From: a virus
Taxonomy: Duplodnaviria > Caudoviricetes
Length of the DNA stretch: 64,000 nt
Reading direction: 5' to 3' (one strand)
Virus record (IMG/VR): IMGVR_UViG_3300032007_000028
Part shown: one piece after another, positions 24,338-50,721 of the stretch
Numbering within the stretch: position 1 is the first letter of the stretch
Layout of the letters: every line of letters starts with the position of its first letter
Program-made: the position numbers and the translations under genes
The notes under the pieces: model-generated
Seen by the model: the letters and a program-made list of their open reading frames with translations, nothing else
Told to the model about the DNA's origin: nothing
The model's database searches: none

Positions 24338-25093
24338 GCGCTCCCTTCGGCTTTTTGCAGAAACCTAACTGACATCCTTTGCGAATTTCACGACTGTGGG
24401 TAGAAACTCGTTAAATCCCCTTGCACTCTTTCACCTGCATGGCGATAGGATTACCTTCACGCGTCAATCCTATAAAGAGGTCTGGTCTATCTGGCAGAAC
24501 GATGCTGTCTTGCCGTGCGTGAGACTGCCCGCACGTCGCGATTTGAGTTCTCGCGACAAGAACACTCGCAGAGGTTTAACGTCTTCGTGCCGACGTGTGC
24601 ATCATGCCAGCCGAAGCGGGCGGTGGATGCACTGCTAAGCAGAGGGTTTTACCTCTGTAAGAACAACGATGCGCTATTCAATGCCGATTCCCATTCACGC
24701 ATCAACAACCCACCATAATTATGCAGTCTGTCTGCTTTTCAATCGGAAGGTTCTTCACTGACCCTGCGACTAGGGCAATCGCTATTCAGATTCGAGACAG
24801 CCACGTCTCTTGGGTGAGGGAACATTAAGGGTGTTTTGCATACGCACAACAGTTATAAGTGCGTCGCTAACTCCTGCCCACGCTGTACTGAAAGACTCTT
24901 TTTCTGGTGCCTTGCTGCCATACCTGGTTTGCTCGTGGTCGTGGGTATCCAGTTCCCATGATTCCCGCTCATCGTACAGCCACGTATACGATGAACATCA
25001 GGCTAAGACGACGACGTATCTGTCGACGAATACTCGGTTTAGCGACATGGGCAGGTCGTGTGACATCAAGCTTTCGCAAGATGCAGGGAGCAC
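24338..25093 (-). ncRNA. Large highly structured non-coding RNA (GOLLD/ROOL-like in size and context, or novel)
   Basis: About 750 nt with no credible ORF; nested 5'/3' closing helices and at least 10 local hairpins; terminator-like hairpin and U-tract at the 3' end. Confidence 0.75.
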
Positions 25094-25111
25094 ACTCGTT
25101 TTATCAATTGA

Positions 25112-26318: not shown

Positions 26319-28061
26319 TTAATTTAGCGTGGGGTTTCCTTCTATTGTGAGAAAATCGTCGATTGGCATATGCGACAGTTTTTCATTGCCGACACTGCAG
26401 TATTCTTGCTTTTTGCCAACTATAGGCCCATCTTTGACGACTGTCACATAGTCGATTGACGGAGCGTTTTCGGCAACCGTTTTCCAAATTGAATCGAACC
26501 AATTAACTTTGCTGTCGACGGGTATTCTGAAGTATATCTCGCCATTGTCGCCACCGTACGCATATTTTATATTAGACGTACGCACGCGACAGAACTCTTC
26601 GTTCGTCTTTCTAGAAAGTTCTTCGAACAGGGACTTCGCTTCTTCGTTGGTCTTGTCTTCTAGGCTTTCGAATTTGCTTACGAGAGAAGCGATATCTTCC
26701 CTTTTCGTATTCTCTCTGAACCATTCGAGAAAGCCAGAATGTCTGTTCAACAACTCATTCAGATTCTTCTCATAAGACGCTTCTTTGAACATCTCTATAT
26801 AAGGATGGACGGAACCACATTCCAGAAGCTTGCCATCGTTGCGCAACATATATGGGGTATTCGATTTCAACATAGGTTCTTTCTTATTCTCGGTCAACGA
26901 CTTGAATCTCTCGTCCTCGTCATTGCCGTACAGACCGAACGAGAATGCGACGCCATTGGGCAACAAAGTGTATCCATCGCACGACTTCGCCAACGCATCG
27001 AATATAACGTTCGATGTGGTATATGTTTCGGAATATCTGTCGTCTTTTTCGTCTTTCTTATCGTGACTCGTAGTCTTCAGCTTTTTGCCCTTTGAGAACG
27101 AGAACGTGATGAAACTGTCCTGCGCAAGGGCGTTGGCAAGTTCCTCTGACGTCGTTTCATTCGGTCTTTCGATGATATACGTATCTGGATTTGCATCGCC
27201 AAGATAATAACCGGATACGCGAAGGCCATTGTTCTCCACATACGACACAGCGTTGTCATACGCGTCTTTGTTGTCGTCTCTTTTCTTTTCGTTGTGCTCG
27301 TCGACGTTCGTGGCAAGAATGACGTACTCTTCGCCAAATTTGACGTCTATGTGTTTGGACAATTCGTAGAAAAAACGTTTTGCGTTGTCGATGACCATCT
27401 GCTCTGAAAGACGCTCCAACGAAAGCTGACGAGACTTCAGCTTCTTCGATAAATCCTTCAATTCGTCCAAATAACCGAGATTGCGCATCTCCTTGAACAC
27501 GAGATTGCCGATGCCGAATTCTCCGTCTTTGGCGATTGATTCCTTACGCAAATCGTATAGGTCTTCGATGAAGTCGTAAATCTCTTCGTAAAGGTCATCT
27601 TCTTGCGTCGACTGCTTCGATTCATATAAAGACAACGGTATATTTCGTTCTTTGACGAAGTCGATGATTTTTTTCTTCATATCGTCTGGGATGACACCCA
27701 ATGACTTAAACTCGGAATTGTGTATGATGTCGTAAGCGGACCAATTCTTGCTTTCGTTTTTCTTAAGTCTGCGGTCTGAAATGAAGAAACCAGTAGGCTT
27801 TGCGAGATTCGTGCCTTTCAACTCTCCCAAAGAAAACGACAAAAAATCATCTATGTCTTTATACTTTTCGACTTGGGAAGTACCATGAATGAAAATCGGA
27901 TACACGTCTTTCAGAGAAAAGTCTTTGTCTTCGAAGTCTTCCGCATCATACGCGGGGTCGAGTATGATTACTGGACGACGCTTCGCAGGCGGGTCGTATT
28001 TATGGTCGTTCGGTACCTTGCAAATCAATAATTCGAAGGGCTTTAATACATAGTCTTTCAT
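26319..28061 (-). CDS. Multi-module protein: PemK/MazF-like N-domain, NTase C-terminal helical fragment and two unknown modules
   Basis: AKRRPVIIL; DLYDLRKESIAKDGEFGIGNLVFKEMRNLGYLD; linkers LYES, LSEQ, LTEN. Confidence 0.55.
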   Translation of the reverse strand: MKDYVLKPFELLICKVPNDHKYDPPAKRRPVIILDPAYDAEDFEDKDFSLKDVYPIFIHGTSQVEKYKDIDDFLSFSLGELKGTNLAKPTGFFISDRRLKKNESKNWSAYDIIHNSEFKSLGVIPDDMKKKIIDFVKERNIPLSLYESKQSTQEDDLYEEIYDFIEDLYDLRKESIAKDGEFGIGNLVFKEMRNLGYLDELKDLSKKLKSRQLSLERLSEQMVIDNAKRFFYELSKHIDVKFGEEYVILATNVDEHNEKKRDDNKDAYDNAVSYVENNGLRVSGYYLGDANPDTYIIERPNETTSEELANALAQDSFITFSFSKGKKLKTTSHDKKDEKDDRYSETYTTSNVIFDALAKSCDGYTLLPNGVAFSFGLYGNDEDERFKSLTENKKEPMLKSNTPYMLRNDGKLLECGSVHPYIEMFKEASYEKNLNELLNRHSGFLEWFRENTKREDIASLVSKFESLEDKTNEEAKSLFEELSRKTNEEFCRVRTSNIKYAYGGDNGEIYFRIPVDSKVNWFDSIWKTVAENAPSIDYVTVVKDGPIVGKKQEYCSVGNEKLSHMPIDDFLTIEGNPTLN

Positions 28062-28078
28062 CTGTTCACCCCACTTAG

Positions 28079-28318
28079 TTACCAGTCGGCCTCGTCCTCT
28101 ACGCTCGCGAACGAATCGTCATCTGGTTCTTCGATTGAATCGTTTCTGCGAAGCGATTCCATATATGCGATGTTCAATTGACGACGATATGACTCTTCGT
28201 CAGAATACGACTCTTTGAGCGACTTCAAAGATTCGACGAATTTAATCAACTCGTCGTCGGTCATCGATTTAACCTTCTCGACAATCTTCGAATATCTCTT
28301 TTCGTTTTTATCAATCAT
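28079..28318 (-). CDS. Small acidic helical protein (antitoxin-like)
   Basis: 79 aa; SD GAGGTG; own sigma70 promoter; directly precedes a PemK-like domain. Confidence 0.55.
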   Translation of the reverse strand: MIDKNEKRYSKIVEKVKSMTDDELIKFVESLKSLKESYSDEESYRRQLNIAYMESLRRNDSIEEPDDDSFASVEDEADW

Positions 28319-28342
28319 AACGTCACCTCTACTCTAGCATAA

Positions 28343-28371
28343 ATTATATAAGCACGTTTCTTGCGTGTCAA
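28343..28371 (-). promoter_or_regulatory. Consensus sigma70 promoter TTGACA-17-TATAAT
   Basis: Perfect consensus; the -35 box overlaps the TGA stop of the upstream ORF. Confidence 0.8.
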
Positions 28372-31322
28372 GCGACTTCGATGATTTTTGGCGTATAGTC
28401 GTCAATCCACCCGTCTTGGACATAGTGATGTTGATATTTGCCCAAGGCCTTACCTAACGGGCTTGACTTATATTTGTCGTCGCTTCTCGTCGTCACCACA
28501 CCGAAGTCATAGACATACTTACCTTCGTAACCGTCTTCGTTGATGTCTGAACCGTAAGTATCTGCTACTTTATCGAGAGGTGCATAGATATAGTATATCA
28601 CGTGTCCACCGTAGTCGTCAAGATAACTGTCCAATTCCCATTTACCTCTGAGCACACCGCTTTGCGCGAGCTGTGCATAGTAACCACGCTCCCAGGCCGC
28701 ATCGACCATCTCACGATGAATCAACTCATCTGCATCACACACGAAGAATCTCTTCAGTTTTCTGTCATACAATATACGTAAAGCTTTTTCTGATGAGCGT
28801 AGCATATTCGCCACTTCGTAAGGACTTTCCGTCGTGAATATCTCTTTATCATCATCCACGTACTCTTCTTTCAAAGACTCATGGGCGTCTCTGACATACT
28901 TTATACCGTTTTTCTCACAATACTGTATGGCATATTCGTTGTTTGTGTGCACAGTAAGTCTTACGCAACCAGCGAAAGCACGCATGCCAATCGAAGTTAC
29001 ACTATTTGGAATTGTAATAGATGTTAAGGAGTCGCAACGAGAGAAAGCATCATCACCGATTGAAGTTACACTATTAGGTATCGTAATCGACGTTAAGGAT
29101 TTGCAACCAGCGAAAGCACCTATGCCAATTTCCGTTACACTATCAGAAATCGTTATGGAAGTTAAGGATTCACAGTCATAAAAAGCGGCCCCGCCAATTT
29201 CCGTTACACTTTTTGGAATTGTTATTGACGTTAAGGAGGCACACCCAAAAAAAGCACTTTCGCCAATTCTCGTTATGCCACTAGGTATCATAATTGACTT
29301 TAAGGATGTGCAACCAGCGAAAACGGCTCTGCCAATTTCCGTTACACTGTCTGATACTGTAATTGACTCTAAAGACCTACAGGCAAAGAAAGCATCTTCG
29401 CCAATCGAAGTGACACTATTTGGAATCGTGATTGACTTTAAGGCCCCGCAGTCACGAAAAGCATTTTTGCCAATTCTCGTTATGTCGTCTGGTATTGCTA
29501 CTGACTTTAAGTAGGCACACCCAAAAAAAGCAAGGTCGCCGATTTTCGTGACACTGTTAGGAATCGTTACCGACTTTAATGATGTTGATGCTTTGACAAT
29601 CTCGGTACCATCGTCGCTTAAAGCAAGTCCATTTACGACTTTGGGTCTTTTTATAACCAACTTTGCATTAATTAAGTCAATCGGCAACGAGTTGAGTTCA
29701 GAATAATCTCGATAGTCTTTTTGATTGAACAACTCGAAATTTGTCTCTTTCAAGTATTCATTATCGTTCAAGAATTCATTGACATTAATCGTTCTTGGAT
29801 ATAACGCCAAGGCGTATTCTCCGTAAAACGTAGACGGGTCTAGAAAGTAGAAGAATCTCACCCCCTTTTTCGTATAATTGTTCCAGTGCTTCTTAGCATC
29901 TTTCGCGCTTGGATTATATTCAGGATGCCCTGCATGACCATATCTTCCAGTAGTGCACCAACCCGTGTTTATACCCAAATCCATCGAGGCTACGTAATCC
30001 AAAGGCTCGTATACTAAGTATCCATTCTTTTCGCCCAAAAAGTTATATTTGCCACGAACCTCGCGGGTCTTGCCCGACATCACGCGTTTTTTCTGAGCGT
30101 CTTTTTTGTCATCGTATAACGACAACAGCAAATCGTCCAATTGCTTTTTGTCGTACTTTAAGTATTGACCATAATCGACGGAAAGACCTTTGTTGAGCAG
30201 ACGTTGTTTGGCCTTCTCGAAGTTTTTCGCAGTATCTTCGCCGAACTTGGCGATGAAATCCGTCTTCGCAGATTCGTCCAATGCGCTTTCCCTAATCAAA
30301 GACTCGTCCAAAGGGTGCTCTGTCGACGCAAGAGCGTACTCTATTCTGTCGCGAAGTTCGAAGTACTTGTCTTCCCATTTTGAAAGTTCGTCGTCCAACT
30401 TCTCTCTGTCTATGTCTGGGATATCCGTCTGAACGGGCTTCTTAACCCAACCGTTTTCGATTGAATAGATGCCATTGCTTACGCCTTGGGGCTCGTCCAT
30501 TTCCACGTAAATCTCCGCAGGAATGCCTTTTATCTTTATTTCGTAGTTCTTGTTGAAGATAGAACGATACGCGGAATAAAGCAGAGGATACAACTCGTCT
30601 GGACACTCTAGACCTTCGCTGTCCGCTATTAAGTGAATGTCCAAGTCGCTGTCTTTCGTATAGTTGTAGTTGACGTTTGAGCCGATGAGAACGATGTCCT
30701 TGAGATTGAACTTGATTCCGTCCGCCTTCAACTCATCGACGAACGCATTTGCGATTTCAACAACTTTGTCTTTTACGTCTTGTCTCAATTCGTCGCCGTC
30801 GAATAACTTCTGATTCAGTTCGTCATGCTTCTCGATGTCCTCTTCGATATCGACGGCCAAAGCGTCGTGCAGTTTTGTGAAGTTGCCGACTCTGTTATTC
30901 AATTCCTTCTTTATATACGCCTTGTCCTCTTTCGAGATATCCGCAACGTATTCACCGTAATCGATGAAATCCTGTATCGACAAATCGTATGTGAATTTAC
31001 CTTCCGCTTTGCCGAATCTAAAAATGGTGGGCTTCTTCAATTTATATCTCTTTAGTTGTTCGGCGTCATCGAAGATTACCGTATCAGGCTCGGCTTCATA
31101 ACGCTTTACGTTCGTCGTGCCTACAGCGAAAAGAGGGAAGAACTGAGTTAAGTCCTCCTCGTCTTTCTCTTCTTCGTCGACAAACGTCTCCACAAGAATG
31201 ACCGGTCTGCCGAATTTTGCTTCTTCTGGGTCATTTAGATGCTCGTTTGGGACTTGTATTTTCCACATTTGCCATTCCTTGGGGAACGGCTTCTCTTTCA
31301 ATATGTTCTCTTCGTCAGGCAT
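28368..31322 (-). CDS. Multi-module protein: PemK-like domain, nucleotidyltransferase catalytic part, 'WCT' module, BspA-type LRR, unknown module
   Basis: FGRPVILV; GSNVNYNYTKDSDLDIH (GS...DxD); ASMDLGINTGWCTT; about ten 23-aa SITIPNSVTSIG-x-AF-x-C repeats. Confidence 0.7.
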   Translation of the reverse strand: MPDEENILKEKPFPKEWQMWKIQVPNEHLNDPEEAKFGRPVILVETFVDEEEKDEEDLTQFFPLFAVGTTNVKRYEAEPDTVIFDDAEQLKRYKLKKPTIFRFGKAEGKFTYDLSIQDFIDYGEYVADISKEDKAYIKKELNNRVGNFTKLHDALAVDIEEDIEKHDELNQKLFDGDELRQDVKDKVVEIANAFVDELKADGIKFNLKDIVLIGSNVNYNYTKDSDLDIHLIADSEGLECPDELYPLLYSAYRSIFNKNYEIKIKGIPAEIYVEMDEPQGVSNGIYSIENGWVKKPVQTDIPDIDREKLDDELSKWEDKYFELRDRIEYALASTEHPLDESLIRESALDESAKTDFIAKFGEDTAKNFEKAKQRLLNKGLSVDYGQYLKYDKKQLDDLLLSLYDDKKDAQKKRVMSGKTREVRGKYNFLGEKNGYLVYEPLDYVASMDLGINTGWCTTGRYGHAGHPEYNPSAKDAKKHWNNYTKKGVRFFYFLDPSTFYGEYALALYPRTINVNEFLNDNEYLKETNFELFNQKDYRDYSELNSLPIDLINAKLVIKRPKVVNGLALSDDGTEIVKASTSLKSVTIPNSVTKIGDLAFFGCAYLKSVAIPDDITRIGKNAFRDCGALKSITIPNSVTSIGEDAFFACRSLESITVSDSVTEIGRAVFAGCTSLKSIMIPSGITRIGESAFFGCASLTSITIPKSVTEIGGAAFYDCESLTSITISDSVTEIGIGAFAGCKSLTSITIPNSVTSIGDDAFSRCDSLTSITIPNSVTSIGMRAFAGCVRLTVHTNNEYAIQYCEKNGIKYVRDAHESLKEEYVDDDKEIFTTESPYEVANMLRSSEKALRILYDRKLKRFFVCDADELIHREMVDAAWERGYYAQLAQSGVLRGKWELDSYLDDYGGHVIYYIYAPLDKVADTYGSDINEDGYEGKYVYDFGVVTTRSDDKYKSSPLGKALGKYQHHYVQDGWIDDYTPKIIEVA
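28920..29590 (-). repeat. BspA/LRR_5 leucine-rich repeat array (69-bp period)
   Basis: Tandem L-x-SITIP-x-SVT-x-IG-x-x-AF-x-x-C units. Confidence 0.9.
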
Positions 31323-49119: not shown

Positions 49120-50721
49120 TTACTTGACTAGACCCGCAACGTAGAGCGAGTGTTCGTCGATTTCGTCGTCGTAGATTGACGACTTGGCTTGAGCCTGAGC
49201 GGCGGGCTTAGACTCTTTTATCGAAACCACCGTGTTCTTGTCCAACTTGAACGGCAATTTCGTAAGGCTGAGGTTGTAGGATTGCAGACTTTCGCAAACG
49301 TCGTCGATGTCGTCTAGCGAATACGATTCCTTGAGTCTGCTCTTGATGTCATGAGAATCGACACCAAGCACGACCGCTTTGGATTCGATGTATCTGTCGA
49401 CGACTTCGTTCGCGAGTCTCTTATAGCCTTCGGCGAGTTTGGACGATTTGTTCAATCTCTCCGTCAACTTGGAGATTTCGCGCTTTGAACGATTGCGTTC
49501 GGCATTAAGCGATTCTTCGAGTTCTTTGGTCTTCGTTTCGTTCTCTTTGAGTGCTTCGGACAATTTGCGTTCAAGCGTCTTGACCTTGTTCTCGCCGAGT
49601 TTGACAGACTCCTTGAGGGAGTTGTTCTCTGAAGCGAACTTACCTTTGCTCTCGACGACCACTTTGTTGAGTAAAGCGATACTGTCGTTTCTACTCTTGA
49701 GTTCCTCTTGCAACTTGGACGCGTCTTTGGCTTTCTCAGACGACTCTTTGACCAAACGCGTCAATCTCACGATTGTCGATTTGTTCTTTTCGTCGTTTGC
49801 ACGTAACCTACTGACTTCCGCATCGCTGACCGCCAGACGTTCCTGAAGCGACTTTATAGTCGATTCCATCGTCTTCTTGGCCTTTAACGCTTCCTGCAAA
49901 TCCCGAATGATGTCATTCGTCCCGTCATCGACGGCCTCTGCGACTTGTTCGGATTTCGCTTGAGGTTCCTCTTCCTTCTTTATATCCGCATCTTCTTGCG
50001 AAGACGTTGATAACTCTTCTTCCTTTTCTTCTTCGACGGCTTTTTCTTCTTCGACTTCTTTGATGCCGAGGTCTTCGAGGGCTTCGGTCATCATCTTCTT
50101 CTCGTCAGTCGAGTATTCCGTACCGTCCAACTTCTTTGCGTTTTCGATGTCTTCGCAAAGAGCTTTCTTCAAATCTGTCATATTATTCTTGTCAAGACCT
50201 TCCGTCATCGTGAGTCTCGCGTCTTTGACTGCGGGAAGCAACACGAGGTCGAATGTCGTGAAACTATATGTATCGGGGTCGACGATTTCGTCGCCGTTCT
50301 CGTCTTCGATTATATCACCTGAGCCACGAGAGGAGATACCGAGTTTGAAGCCGTATTTCGCAAGCTGATACGCGATTCTGCCCATCGGTGTATCGATGAG
50401 GTCGCAATATGCGATGAGATGTCCCTCTTTGTCCTTTTTGGGAGCTTCGGGCATCATGGCCGCGATTCTACTGCTGTCGGTCTCTTCTCTGTCGGCCGGA
50501 TGGTCGAGTTCCATGGGTATGCCACCATTGGCGAACATCTCTTTCGTGATGTCGTCGTTGAAGACATTCTCCCAAAGCGACTCGTTGTAACCTCTACCGT
50601 TGCGAGTCGGGACCGAAATCGAGGCGCAGGGACCGTAAAGTCTGCCTAAAATGCCTCTCTTTTCCTTTTCCTCTTGGGTCAAATCCTCGAATGCGAGCAT
50701 TTCTCTTATTCTGTCTTTCAT
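49120..50721 (-). CDS. Prohead protease (T4 gp21-like) fused to scaffold coiled coil
   Basis: TRNGRGY, ELDHP, DTPMGRI, GISSRGSG, TFDLVLLPA; long coiled-coil C-terminus. Confidence 0.9.
   Translation of the reverse strand: MKDRIREMLAFEDLTQEEKEKRGILGRLYGPCASISVPTRNGRGYNESLWENVFNDDITKEMFANGGIPMELDHPADREETDSSRIAAMMPEAPKKDKEGHLIAYCDLIDTPMGRIAYQLAKYGFKLGISSRGSGDIIEDENGDEIVDPDTYSFTTFDLVLLPAVKDARLTMTEGLDKNNMTDLKKALCEDIENAKKLDGTEYSTDEKKMMTEALEDLGIKEVEEEKAVEEEKEEELSTSSQEDADIKKEEEPQAKSEQVAEAVDDGTNDIIRDLQEALKAKKTMESTIKSLQERLAVSDAEVSRLRANDEKNKSTIVRLTRLVKESSEKAKDASKLQEELKSRNDSIALLNKVVVESKGKFASENNSLKESVKLGENKVKTLERKLSEALKENETKTKELEESLNAERNRSKREISKLTERLNKSSKLAEGYKRLANEVVDRYIESKAVVLGVDSHDIKSRLKESYSLDDIDDVCESLQSYNLSLTKLPFKLDKNTVVSIKESKPAAQAQAKSSIYDDEIDEHSLYVAGLVK

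Follow-up and report, generated by a model that had tools for sequence, protein, structure and literature searches.

The window analysed here is a stretch of 64,000 nucleotides from a virus (Duplodnaviria; Caudoviricetes; IMG/VR virus record IMGVR_UViG_3300032007_000028), in which a nucleotidyltransferase (NTase) of the pol-beta type is distributed over two separate genes. The protein of one gene, P0001, contains the catalytic domain and the first helix of a C-terminal bundle (N piece), whereas the other three helices (C piece) are part of the protein of a second gene, P0002. By sequence comparison the two pieces share ancestry with NTases that are contiguous polypeptides in other phages. The enzyme is probably a gene in pieces, that is, two polypeptides that would dock non-covalently into one active enzyme. 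The features involved are the following (coordinates in the window).

28368..31322, minus strand: P0001 gene, encoding a multi-module 'polyvalent' protein of 984 amino acids (aa); from the list of open reading frames (ORFs), Pfam and PHROG
30279..30857, minus strand: NTase N piece, P0001 156-348; complete minimal pol-beta alpha/beta catalytic domain and bundle helix 1; ends '...ALASTEHPLDES'
30318..30422, minus strand: bundle helix 1, P0001 about 301-335, 'DIDREKLDDELSKWEDKYFELRDRIEYA'; predicted docking surface for the C piece
27588..30278, minus strand: intervening DNA, 2.69 kb between the N and C pieces
26319..28061, minus strand: P0002 gene, 580 aa; N-terminal module, NTase C piece and about 360 aa without a Pfam match
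27405..27587, minus strand: NTase C piece, P0002 159-219; bundle helices 2-4

Two ORFs together cover one NTase family

A preliminary description of the window had assigned the catalytic part of the NTase to ORF 28368..31322 and its helical C-terminal segment to ORF 26319..28061, about 2.7 kb apart. Both assignments were borne out by the motifs and by the profile of phrog_36119, a phage pol-beta nucleotidyltransferase family of 247 profile positions, and the separation was measured as 2.69 kb. Profile positions 12-169 matched P0001 residues 156-310 (E 3.3e-20, window 30393-30857) and positions 191-247 matched P0002 residues 159-215 (E 3.3e-6, window 27417-27587). The whole profile was matched by neither protein alone; together the two pieces cover the family. 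P0001 contains G214-S215, D226-L-D228 (DxD) and E270/E274 in 'AEIYVE'. These correspond to the pol-beta motifs hG[GS] and [DE]x[DE] and to the third carboxylate on a later strand, and across 67 homologs these positions vary little or not at all. On NTP_transf_2, P0001 scored 16.2 bits against a cut-off of 21, and its homolog P0092 reached 28.9 bits, which is above the cut-off. The family-invariant residues of the C piece are present in P0002 as Y169, R172, E181, F189, K190, R193 and L201. The C piece and the helical part had no Pfam match at E up to 1, and the family profile gave no meaningful match in the sequences of solved structures.

From 47 contiguous homologs two hidden Markov models (HMMs) were made, one with 183 positions for the N part and one with 64 positions for the C part. 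In the six-frame translation of the 64-kb window each had exactly one match, at E 2.4e-78 for the N part and at E 3e-28 for the C part, a 1:1 count that holds within this window. With tblastn both pieces were found inside one annotated coding sequence (CDS) of Synechococcus phage DSL-LC02. When the pieces were aligned with three phage proteins that are contiguous, the P0001 piece took up about the first 190 residues and the P0002 piece about the last 60, and the pieces abut at '...ALASTEHPLDES' and 'SKQSTQEDDLYEE...'. The N and C parts are contiguous in single proteins of 237-265 aa of cyanophages and Maribacter phages, and also in many gut-phage proteins. The view that the fragments are the N- and C-terminal parts of one contiguous family is thus upheld by the profile and BLAST check on both, the DSL-LC02 CDS, the alignment and the IMG/VR loci described below.

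The string 'LIRESALDES' of P0001, which MAFFT had aligned to 'LRKESIAKDG', was considered as a vestige of the C piece. This was rejected: in a relative of the window (L030) the string does not follow the same N module, and it resembles instead the start of a next module (compare the ESLTES/ESLTEA module starts in the neighbouring protein P0003).

P0001 and P0002 are truly separate genes. A TGA stop ends P0001, and P0002 as well as an ORF of 79 aa lying between them each have a Shine-Dalgarno sequence and an ATG; for P0002 the ribosome-binding site (RBS) is GGGGTGA. The intervening 2.69 kb holds the rest of the P0001 modules, the TGA stop, a promoter-like stretch with an RBS, the 79-aa ORF and the first 158 codons of P0002. 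The cargo in this DNA consists of an LRR_5 array and two uncharacterised modules.

Fold of the enzyme and position of the break

An AlphaFold2 model was made of a contiguous relative (P0040:21-266, alignment of 59 rows), with a mean predicted local distance difference test (pLDDT) score of 90.3. In this model residues 22-152 form a minimal pol-beta alpha/beta domain and residues 157-245 a separate four-helix bundle (helices 160-179, 183-201, 210-220 and 223-239). The break is located in the short loop around 180-183, after bundle helix 1. Therefore, P0001 keeps the catalytic domain and helix 1, which corresponds to model helix 160-179, and P0002 keeps helices 2-4. The bundle is cut 1+3 and an amphipathic helix is left on the N piece.

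The closest structural matches to residues 22-152 were small stand-alone NTases and MNT antitoxins, i.e. 1ylq (Z 7.0), 2rff (Z 6.9), the MNT antitoxin 8xeo (Z 6.4) and HI0073 (1no5, Z 5.4), where Z values of 6.4-7.0 are in the middling range of the structure-comparison scale. The best Foldseek match of the contiguous model was 6sxj (E 5.3e-4), for which the full-length superposition was poor (TM about 0.25-0.26, root mean square deviation (rmsd) ~15 Å). In the preliminary description it was expected that homologs of the two fragments would somewhere be contiguous. Such homologs do exist. The alpha/beta domain of the N fragment is complete.

The split is maintained in syntenic relatives

Two syntenic relatives share the split. 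One of them, locus L029, is laid out like the window. The other, L030/L031, has no gene corresponding to P0001; the N module lies near the end of a giant gene of 2257 aa, ends at the identical 'HPLDES', is preceded by a different module and is followed directly by a P0001-type C-terminal module. The C piece is in the P0002 homolog, after the same 79-aa ORF. As the split is shared with L029 and L030/L031, it is older than the divergence of these phages. It had been proposed before that other modules and a toxin-antitoxin (TA)-like cassette were inserted into a loop of the enzyme. The break is indeed in a loop and other cargo modules do stand between the pieces, but the TA-like label is weak and a single insertion was not established. 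Because the N module is in a different gene with different neighbours in L030, cassette shuffling fits better than a single insertion.

The window and L030 have diverged in the split state by a synonymous distance (dS) of about 0.3-0.4. Between them the N piece shows 25.5 synonymous and 5.5 nonsynonymous differences (omega 0.044), and the C piece 10 synonymous and 0 nonsynonymous differences (omega 0). The catalytic and family-invariant residues are all intact in both pieces. This shows that both pieces are under strong purifying selection in the split state.

The same loop is broken at other loci

An exhaustive search with the 81-aa C region yielded 928 representative proteins at E <= 0.001. 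In 79 of the best 149 of these 928 the N and C parts are contiguous, and in 68 the C piece occurs without the N part, next to diverse neighbours that include LRR, YafQ, RelE, ParE, Fic, ART-PolyVal, GNAT and SprT. Part of this C-only count is an artefact. Several related phages read TGA as Trp and their genes are cut by table-11 gene calls (e.g. L006), which results in false 'split' NTases in public protein sets. Reading TGA as Trp is needed for open genes in L006, L034, L038/G001, L039, L040 and L044; the window is open under table 11. The split loci were checked directly, each with its own genetic code.

Of the 25 loci that were fetched from IMG/VR (23 distinct contigs), 24 have the N part, and in 22 of these 24 the C part is in the same ORF segment under table 11. 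One of the remaining two (L006) is contiguous when TGA is read as Trp, and the other is cut by the contig end. No extra C piece was present at 10 kb or less from any contiguous IMG/VR locus scanned.

At six further verified loci the partner piece was found in another ORF of the same contig. Downstream of each of the N-only proteins P0009 and P0010 (L032/33 and L036/37) a 66-aa ORF encodes the C piece alone. The N-only protein P0011 (L034) is followed by a gene of 573 aa, which encodes a fusion of a GIY-YIG/NUMOD1 homing endonuclease with the C piece. The endonuclease (L034:10954-12675, TGA as Trp) sits exactly at the N/C junction and in frame with the C piece, with three NUMOD1 matches (1.6e-20), an I-HmuI NUMOD-like match and a weak GIY-YIG match. 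L034 is a classical endonuclease-made gene in pieces. For the C-only protein P0163 (L042) the N part ends the upstream gene, with an ORF of 82 aa between the two genes, and for the C-only protein P0179 (L044) it ends an upstream gene that is directly adjacent. In IMG/VR record G001 an N-only module lies 23 kb from a C-only module. Every related locus that could be resolved has both pieces.

In a maximum likelihood tree of the N parts the 8 verified split rows need 6 state changes, and at least 3 of these are forced by well-supported branches. The tree therefore implies that the same loop was broken repeatedly. In 62 aligned C-only proteins Y, R, G, E, G, N, L, F, K, R and G are invariant; of these, Y, R, F, K and R are also invariant in contiguous enzymes, and E, N, L and G nearly so.

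A second break point was noticed in the same NTase family. Here, the gene stops two residues past the catalytic strand '...EIYVE' (...EIYVELY*, ...EVYVEVI*), and the rest of the domain and the bundle are in the next ORF, which has its own RBS (L039:10001-12326, L040:2918-5243, L041:10001-11666). About 40 of the 120 database homologs among the matches listed end exactly 62 residues after the GSNxSYNY motif. In L039 (11306-11718) a single ORF contains the end of the N part and the C piece, separated by an insert of about 137 aa. This insert has a weak HNH_3 match (E 0.025) and may represent the in-frame remains of an endonuclease in the loop that is broken in the window.

Predicted docking of the two pieces

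The preliminary description had envisaged non-covalent re-association of the two halves. Docking was indeed predicted when the complex of the window's two pieces was modelled from their own alignments alongside 3 controls: the complex score was 0.73 versus 0.00 for the best control. Of 80 solved complexes 58 reach this mark, and of 110 mismatched pairs only 2 do. At least 80% of the contacts are shared between the runs, and the partner pLDDT is at least 74. In the predicted interface P0001 301-334 (helix 1; residues 152-185 of chain 1) contacts P0002 153-211, with one additional contact beside the GS motif; the bundle is rebuilt and the contiguous fold reproduced. The residues listed as packing on helix 1 in the predicted complex do not include the invariant polar residues R172, K190 and R193, which would be compatible with a role of these three at the active-site cleft.

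From this the following course of events is envisaged. The catalytic domain and helix 1 would be made within the 984-aa protein, and helices 2-4 within the 580-aa protein encoded 2.7 kb downstream. Non-covalent packing of helix 1 on the three C-piece helices would rebuild the bundle, and docking would return the invariant residues R172, E181, K190 and R193 to a position beside the catalytic domain, giving one active enzyme. The pieces would be delivered with the virion. Physical reassembly and activity of the split enzyme are thus what we infer. Optionally, the pieces could be freed from the polyproteins by a prohead protease, for which a plausible candidate is encoded in the window:

49120..50721, minus strand: prohead maturation protease of the T4 gp21 type (phrog_207, 1.8e-35; Peptidase_S77 E 1.7e-5, 24.8 bits against a cut-off of 27)

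The T4 gp21 protease cuts after Glu in L/I-x-E. Strings resembling this motif occur at the borders of the pieces (V-D-I-E-E|DIEKHD, P-L-D-E|S, L-Y-E|S and R-L-S-E|Q), and the Glu-rich flanking strings on which attention had been drawn earlier are present in both proteins (VDIEE|DIEKHD...HPLDES in P0001; LSLYES...LSLERLSEQ in P0002). Release of the modules at L/I-x-E by this gp21-type protease is therefore plausible. In the lineages that have the C piece as a free 66-aa ORF such cleavage is not needed.

Both pieces are preceded by homologous N-terminal modules of about 150 aa, which are 34% identical over 102 aa (P0001, 30858-31322, minus strand; P0002, 27588-28061, minus strand). Neither has a Pfam match, PemK included. 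They share only a RRPVI(I/V)LD motif, of a kind found in PemK/MazF toxins, with a PemK-annotated relative, and a PemK/MazF identity, with a match at the level of this motif only and none in Pfam, was left as weak. In other phages the NTase is fused to toxin domains of the PemK, YafQ, RelE or ParE type.

Alternative explanations

Several points weigh against the reassembly of one enzyme from the two pieces. The complex score measures likeness and not binding, and may reflect the model's memory of contiguous relatives, because such relatives exist and the two halves of a split gene usually pass. By itself the N piece might already be active, since the alpha/beta domain of P0001 is a complete minimal-NTase fold and such domains work unattached in MNT antitoxins. 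Both pieces are embedded in large proteins, so that steric access depends on the putative processing or on flexible linkers. At two C-only loci, L024/G002 and L043, no N part was found; both are fragments (G002 is 31.7 kb and 19% complete). The 68 of 149 C-piece proteins that lack the N part and stand beside diverse domains would also fit an autonomous module. This last point belongs to what we rank as the main alternative to a gene in pieces, although it is rather unlikely: the 60-aa helical piece would be an autonomous promiscuous domain (e.g. for binding or as an adaptor), the N piece a self-sufficient NTase, and their presence together the result of a shared cargo repertoire. Next to the diversity of neighbours of the detached C pieces, it is favoured by the match of the alpha/beta domain alone to stand-alone minimal NTases (Z about 7) and by the two fragmentary C-only loci without an N part in the sequence covered. 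Against it, the break cuts a four-helix bundle 1+3 and leaves an amphipathic helix on the N piece. The distant stand-alone homologs of cyanophages and Maribacter phages always have the C piece in cis, the partner was found at every resolvable N-only or C-only locus, scanning up to 10 kb from contiguous IMG/VR loci revealed no spare C piece, and some of the 'C-only' proteins in the databases are gene-calling artefacts in phages that read TGA as Trp (L006). More doubtful still is that the split bundle would serve as a 'dock-and-lock' coupling device, in which helix 1 and helices 2-4 link different cargo proteins that are to be co-packaged or co-delivered, or in which the NTase is active only when both cargoes meet. 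This would explain why in about 45% of the representative C-piece proteins this very conserved piece is detached from the catalytic domain and is found on many effector domains.

Cassette shuffling could also have cut the NTase and left pieces that are non-functional and on their way to being lost. The module borders are recombinogenic, with the N module in different genes in the window and in L030, and other phages have the second break point within the catalytic domain. However, the omega values of both pieces since the divergence of the window and L030 rule out decaying remnants. In addition, the catalytic and family-invariant residues are intact and both pieces are kept in at least three independent split lineages. 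Given the selection data, recombination debris is very unlikely. The least probable explanation is that the pieces are rejoined covalently, either through a split intein or, at the level of the RNA, through an intron or translational bypass. Metagenomes are known to contain fractured genes that have split inteins and homing endonucleases (PMC2677866), and one relative has an intein-related match in a neighbouring gene. In the window, by contrast, neither P0001 nor P0002 has a Hint or intein family match in Pfam, in agreement with the preliminary description. The N piece does not end in a Cys (junction ...HPLDES|LIRES...), and the sequence before the C piece, LSLYESKQSTQEDDLYEE, contains no His-Asn followed by Cys, Ser or Thr. 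The intervening 2.7 kb is conserved coding DNA with its own stop, RBSs and starts. It is because of the lack of intein features and the conserved coding nature of this DNA that we consider covalent rejoining so improbable. Pfam revealed no homing endonuclease, intein or intron-like feature in P0001, the 79-aa ORF or P0002. There is also no direct DNA repeat that links 30279 and 27587 or flanks the intervening DNA, so that a simple duplication or target-site mechanism is not supported.

Genomic setting of the split NTase

The window is part of a T4-like myovirus from a gut-type metagenome. That it belongs to a T4-like myovirus follows from the terminase, portal, head maturation protease and tail sheath that were detected in the window by PHROG scans, and from the T4-type gp13, gp19, baseplate and portal families carried by its relatives. 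No close relative was found: when 20 kb of the window were compared by megablast with 50,697 phage records, there were no matches. All genes of the NTase region are on the minus strand. Three large genes lie between the head and tail blocks, P0003 (2122 aa), P0001 (984 aa) and P0002 (580 aa), and the cargo genes lie between the portal/protease and the sheath genes. P0003 (31315-37683, minus strand) has ART-PolyVal, DUF5662 and GNAT domains according to Pfam. In P0001 the strongest Pfam match is LRR_5 (2.9e-79), and those to NTP_transf_2/Polbeta are weak. P0001 combines unrelated effector-type domains (the NTase piece, the LRR_5 array and others) in one phage polypeptide beside virion genes, as is characteristic of polyvalent proteins.

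28368..31322, minus strand: P0001 modules in order, N-terminal module 1-155; NTase N piece 156-348; uncharacterised module ~349-570; BspA-type leucine-rich repeat (LRR) array ~570-800; C-terminal module 816-984
28079-28318, minus strand: small helical ORF of 79 aa between the two NTase-bearing genes

L030 has a 97% identical copy of the 79-aa ORF. An ORF of 82 aa (1443-1691) that is weakly similar to it (30% over 33 aa, pairwise E 3e-4) has the same position in L042, an unrelated split locus. At least 7 tandem units of 69 nucleotides (23 aa each) form the BspA-type LRR_5 array of P0001 (28975-29595, minus strand). The P0001 module ~349-570 (29600-30278, minus strand), with the motif 'TGWCTTGRYGH', resembles two repeated modules of P0003 ('TTWCITDEDDW' and 'TKWCISGSKRW'). 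P0001 345-570, P0001 800-984 and the inserted modules of P0009 and P0010 had no Pfam match. The region 24396-25110 has no long ORF on the minus strand, though its surroundings are densely coding.

Comparison with known systems

The preliminary description had proposed a naturally split enzyme without an intein. Such an enzyme is not new in principle, as 'genes in pieces' of this kind are known in T4-like phages: NrdA-a/NrdA-b of Aeh1 (insertion of mobE), gp39/gp60 of T4 (mobA) and gp43A/43B of phage 25, the pieces of which reassemble non-covalently into active enzymes (PMC2988022). The NTase resembles these in being a single polypeptide in related phages and two ORFs here, without an intein and with both pieces kept. 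In the relative L034 a GIY-YIG/NUMOD1 endonuclease is located at the junction, and in L039 there is the weak HNH_3 match. In contrast, the intervening DNA of the window consists of 2.7 kb of cargo modules, a small ORF and the start of a second gene, without an endonuclease, and the pieces are internal modules of two different multi-domain proteins. Moreover, the NTase is an accessory and not a replication enzyme, and the same junction was broken several times. Whereas the activity of the T4-type enzymes is established, assembly of the split NTase is predicted from sequence and model.

Two-protein minimal NTases are known as well, i.e. HI0073/HI0074 and the MNT-HEPN toxin-antitoxin pairs. As in these, a minimal pol-beta domain is on one polypeptide and a helical partner on another (1no5, Z 5.4; 8xeo, Z 6.4). 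Unlike the partner in MNT-HEPN pairs the C piece (P0002 159-219) does not belong to the HEPN domains: histidine is completely absent from it, and with it the Rx4-6H motif. It differs from both systems in that its three helices complete a bundle whose helix 1 stays on the catalytic piece, and in that the pair derives from a fused ancestor and not from an ancestral two-gene system. The arrangement of an N-terminal NTase and a C-terminal helical domain is also found in the antibiotic NTases AAD(9)/ANT(9) (6sxj), AadA, ANT(4') and LinB. One homolog is named 'aminoglycoside nucleotidyltransferase' in GenBank, and 6sxj was the best Foldseek match. However, its superposition was poor (TM about 0.26, rmsd about 15 Å) and the search of solved-structure sequences gave no match.

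The proteins that carry the pieces are similar to the polyvalent proteins described by Iyer et al. (2017; PMC5512222), as they are giant and multi-domain, lie in the region of the virion genes and have modules of the ART-PolyVal, GNAT and NTase types. Polyvalent proteins are thought to enter the host by delivery (PMC5512222). The Pol-beta NTase of that study belongs to a different minimal clade, from firmicute elements, which is fused to ArdC-N and related to NTox45, and the word 'split' is absent from the main text (PMC5512222). What is new is the enzyme family, the location of the pieces in different polyvalent proteins with cargo between them, the recurrent break point and the many detached C pieces in metagenomes. 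Intein-free split enzymes of T4-like phages and two-protein minimal NTases were known already.

With this NTase an accessory effector enzyme would join the few phage enzymes known to occur naturally in pieces without an intein. The form of splitting is also different: the pieces are internal modules of different cargo proteins instead of two small ORFs around a homing endonuclease. Because the loop has been broken at least three times independently and the halves are under strong selection, it is a natural split site that evolution has already tested in a small NTase, and it may be useful for fragment-complementation designs. For annotation it implies that hundreds of metagenomic 'hypothetical' proteins contain only the 60-aa helical piece of the enzyme, and that catalytic pieces without the helical piece should not be called truncated or dead. 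Finally, the split NTase offers a handle on how the modules of polyvalent proteins may cooperate after their delivery.

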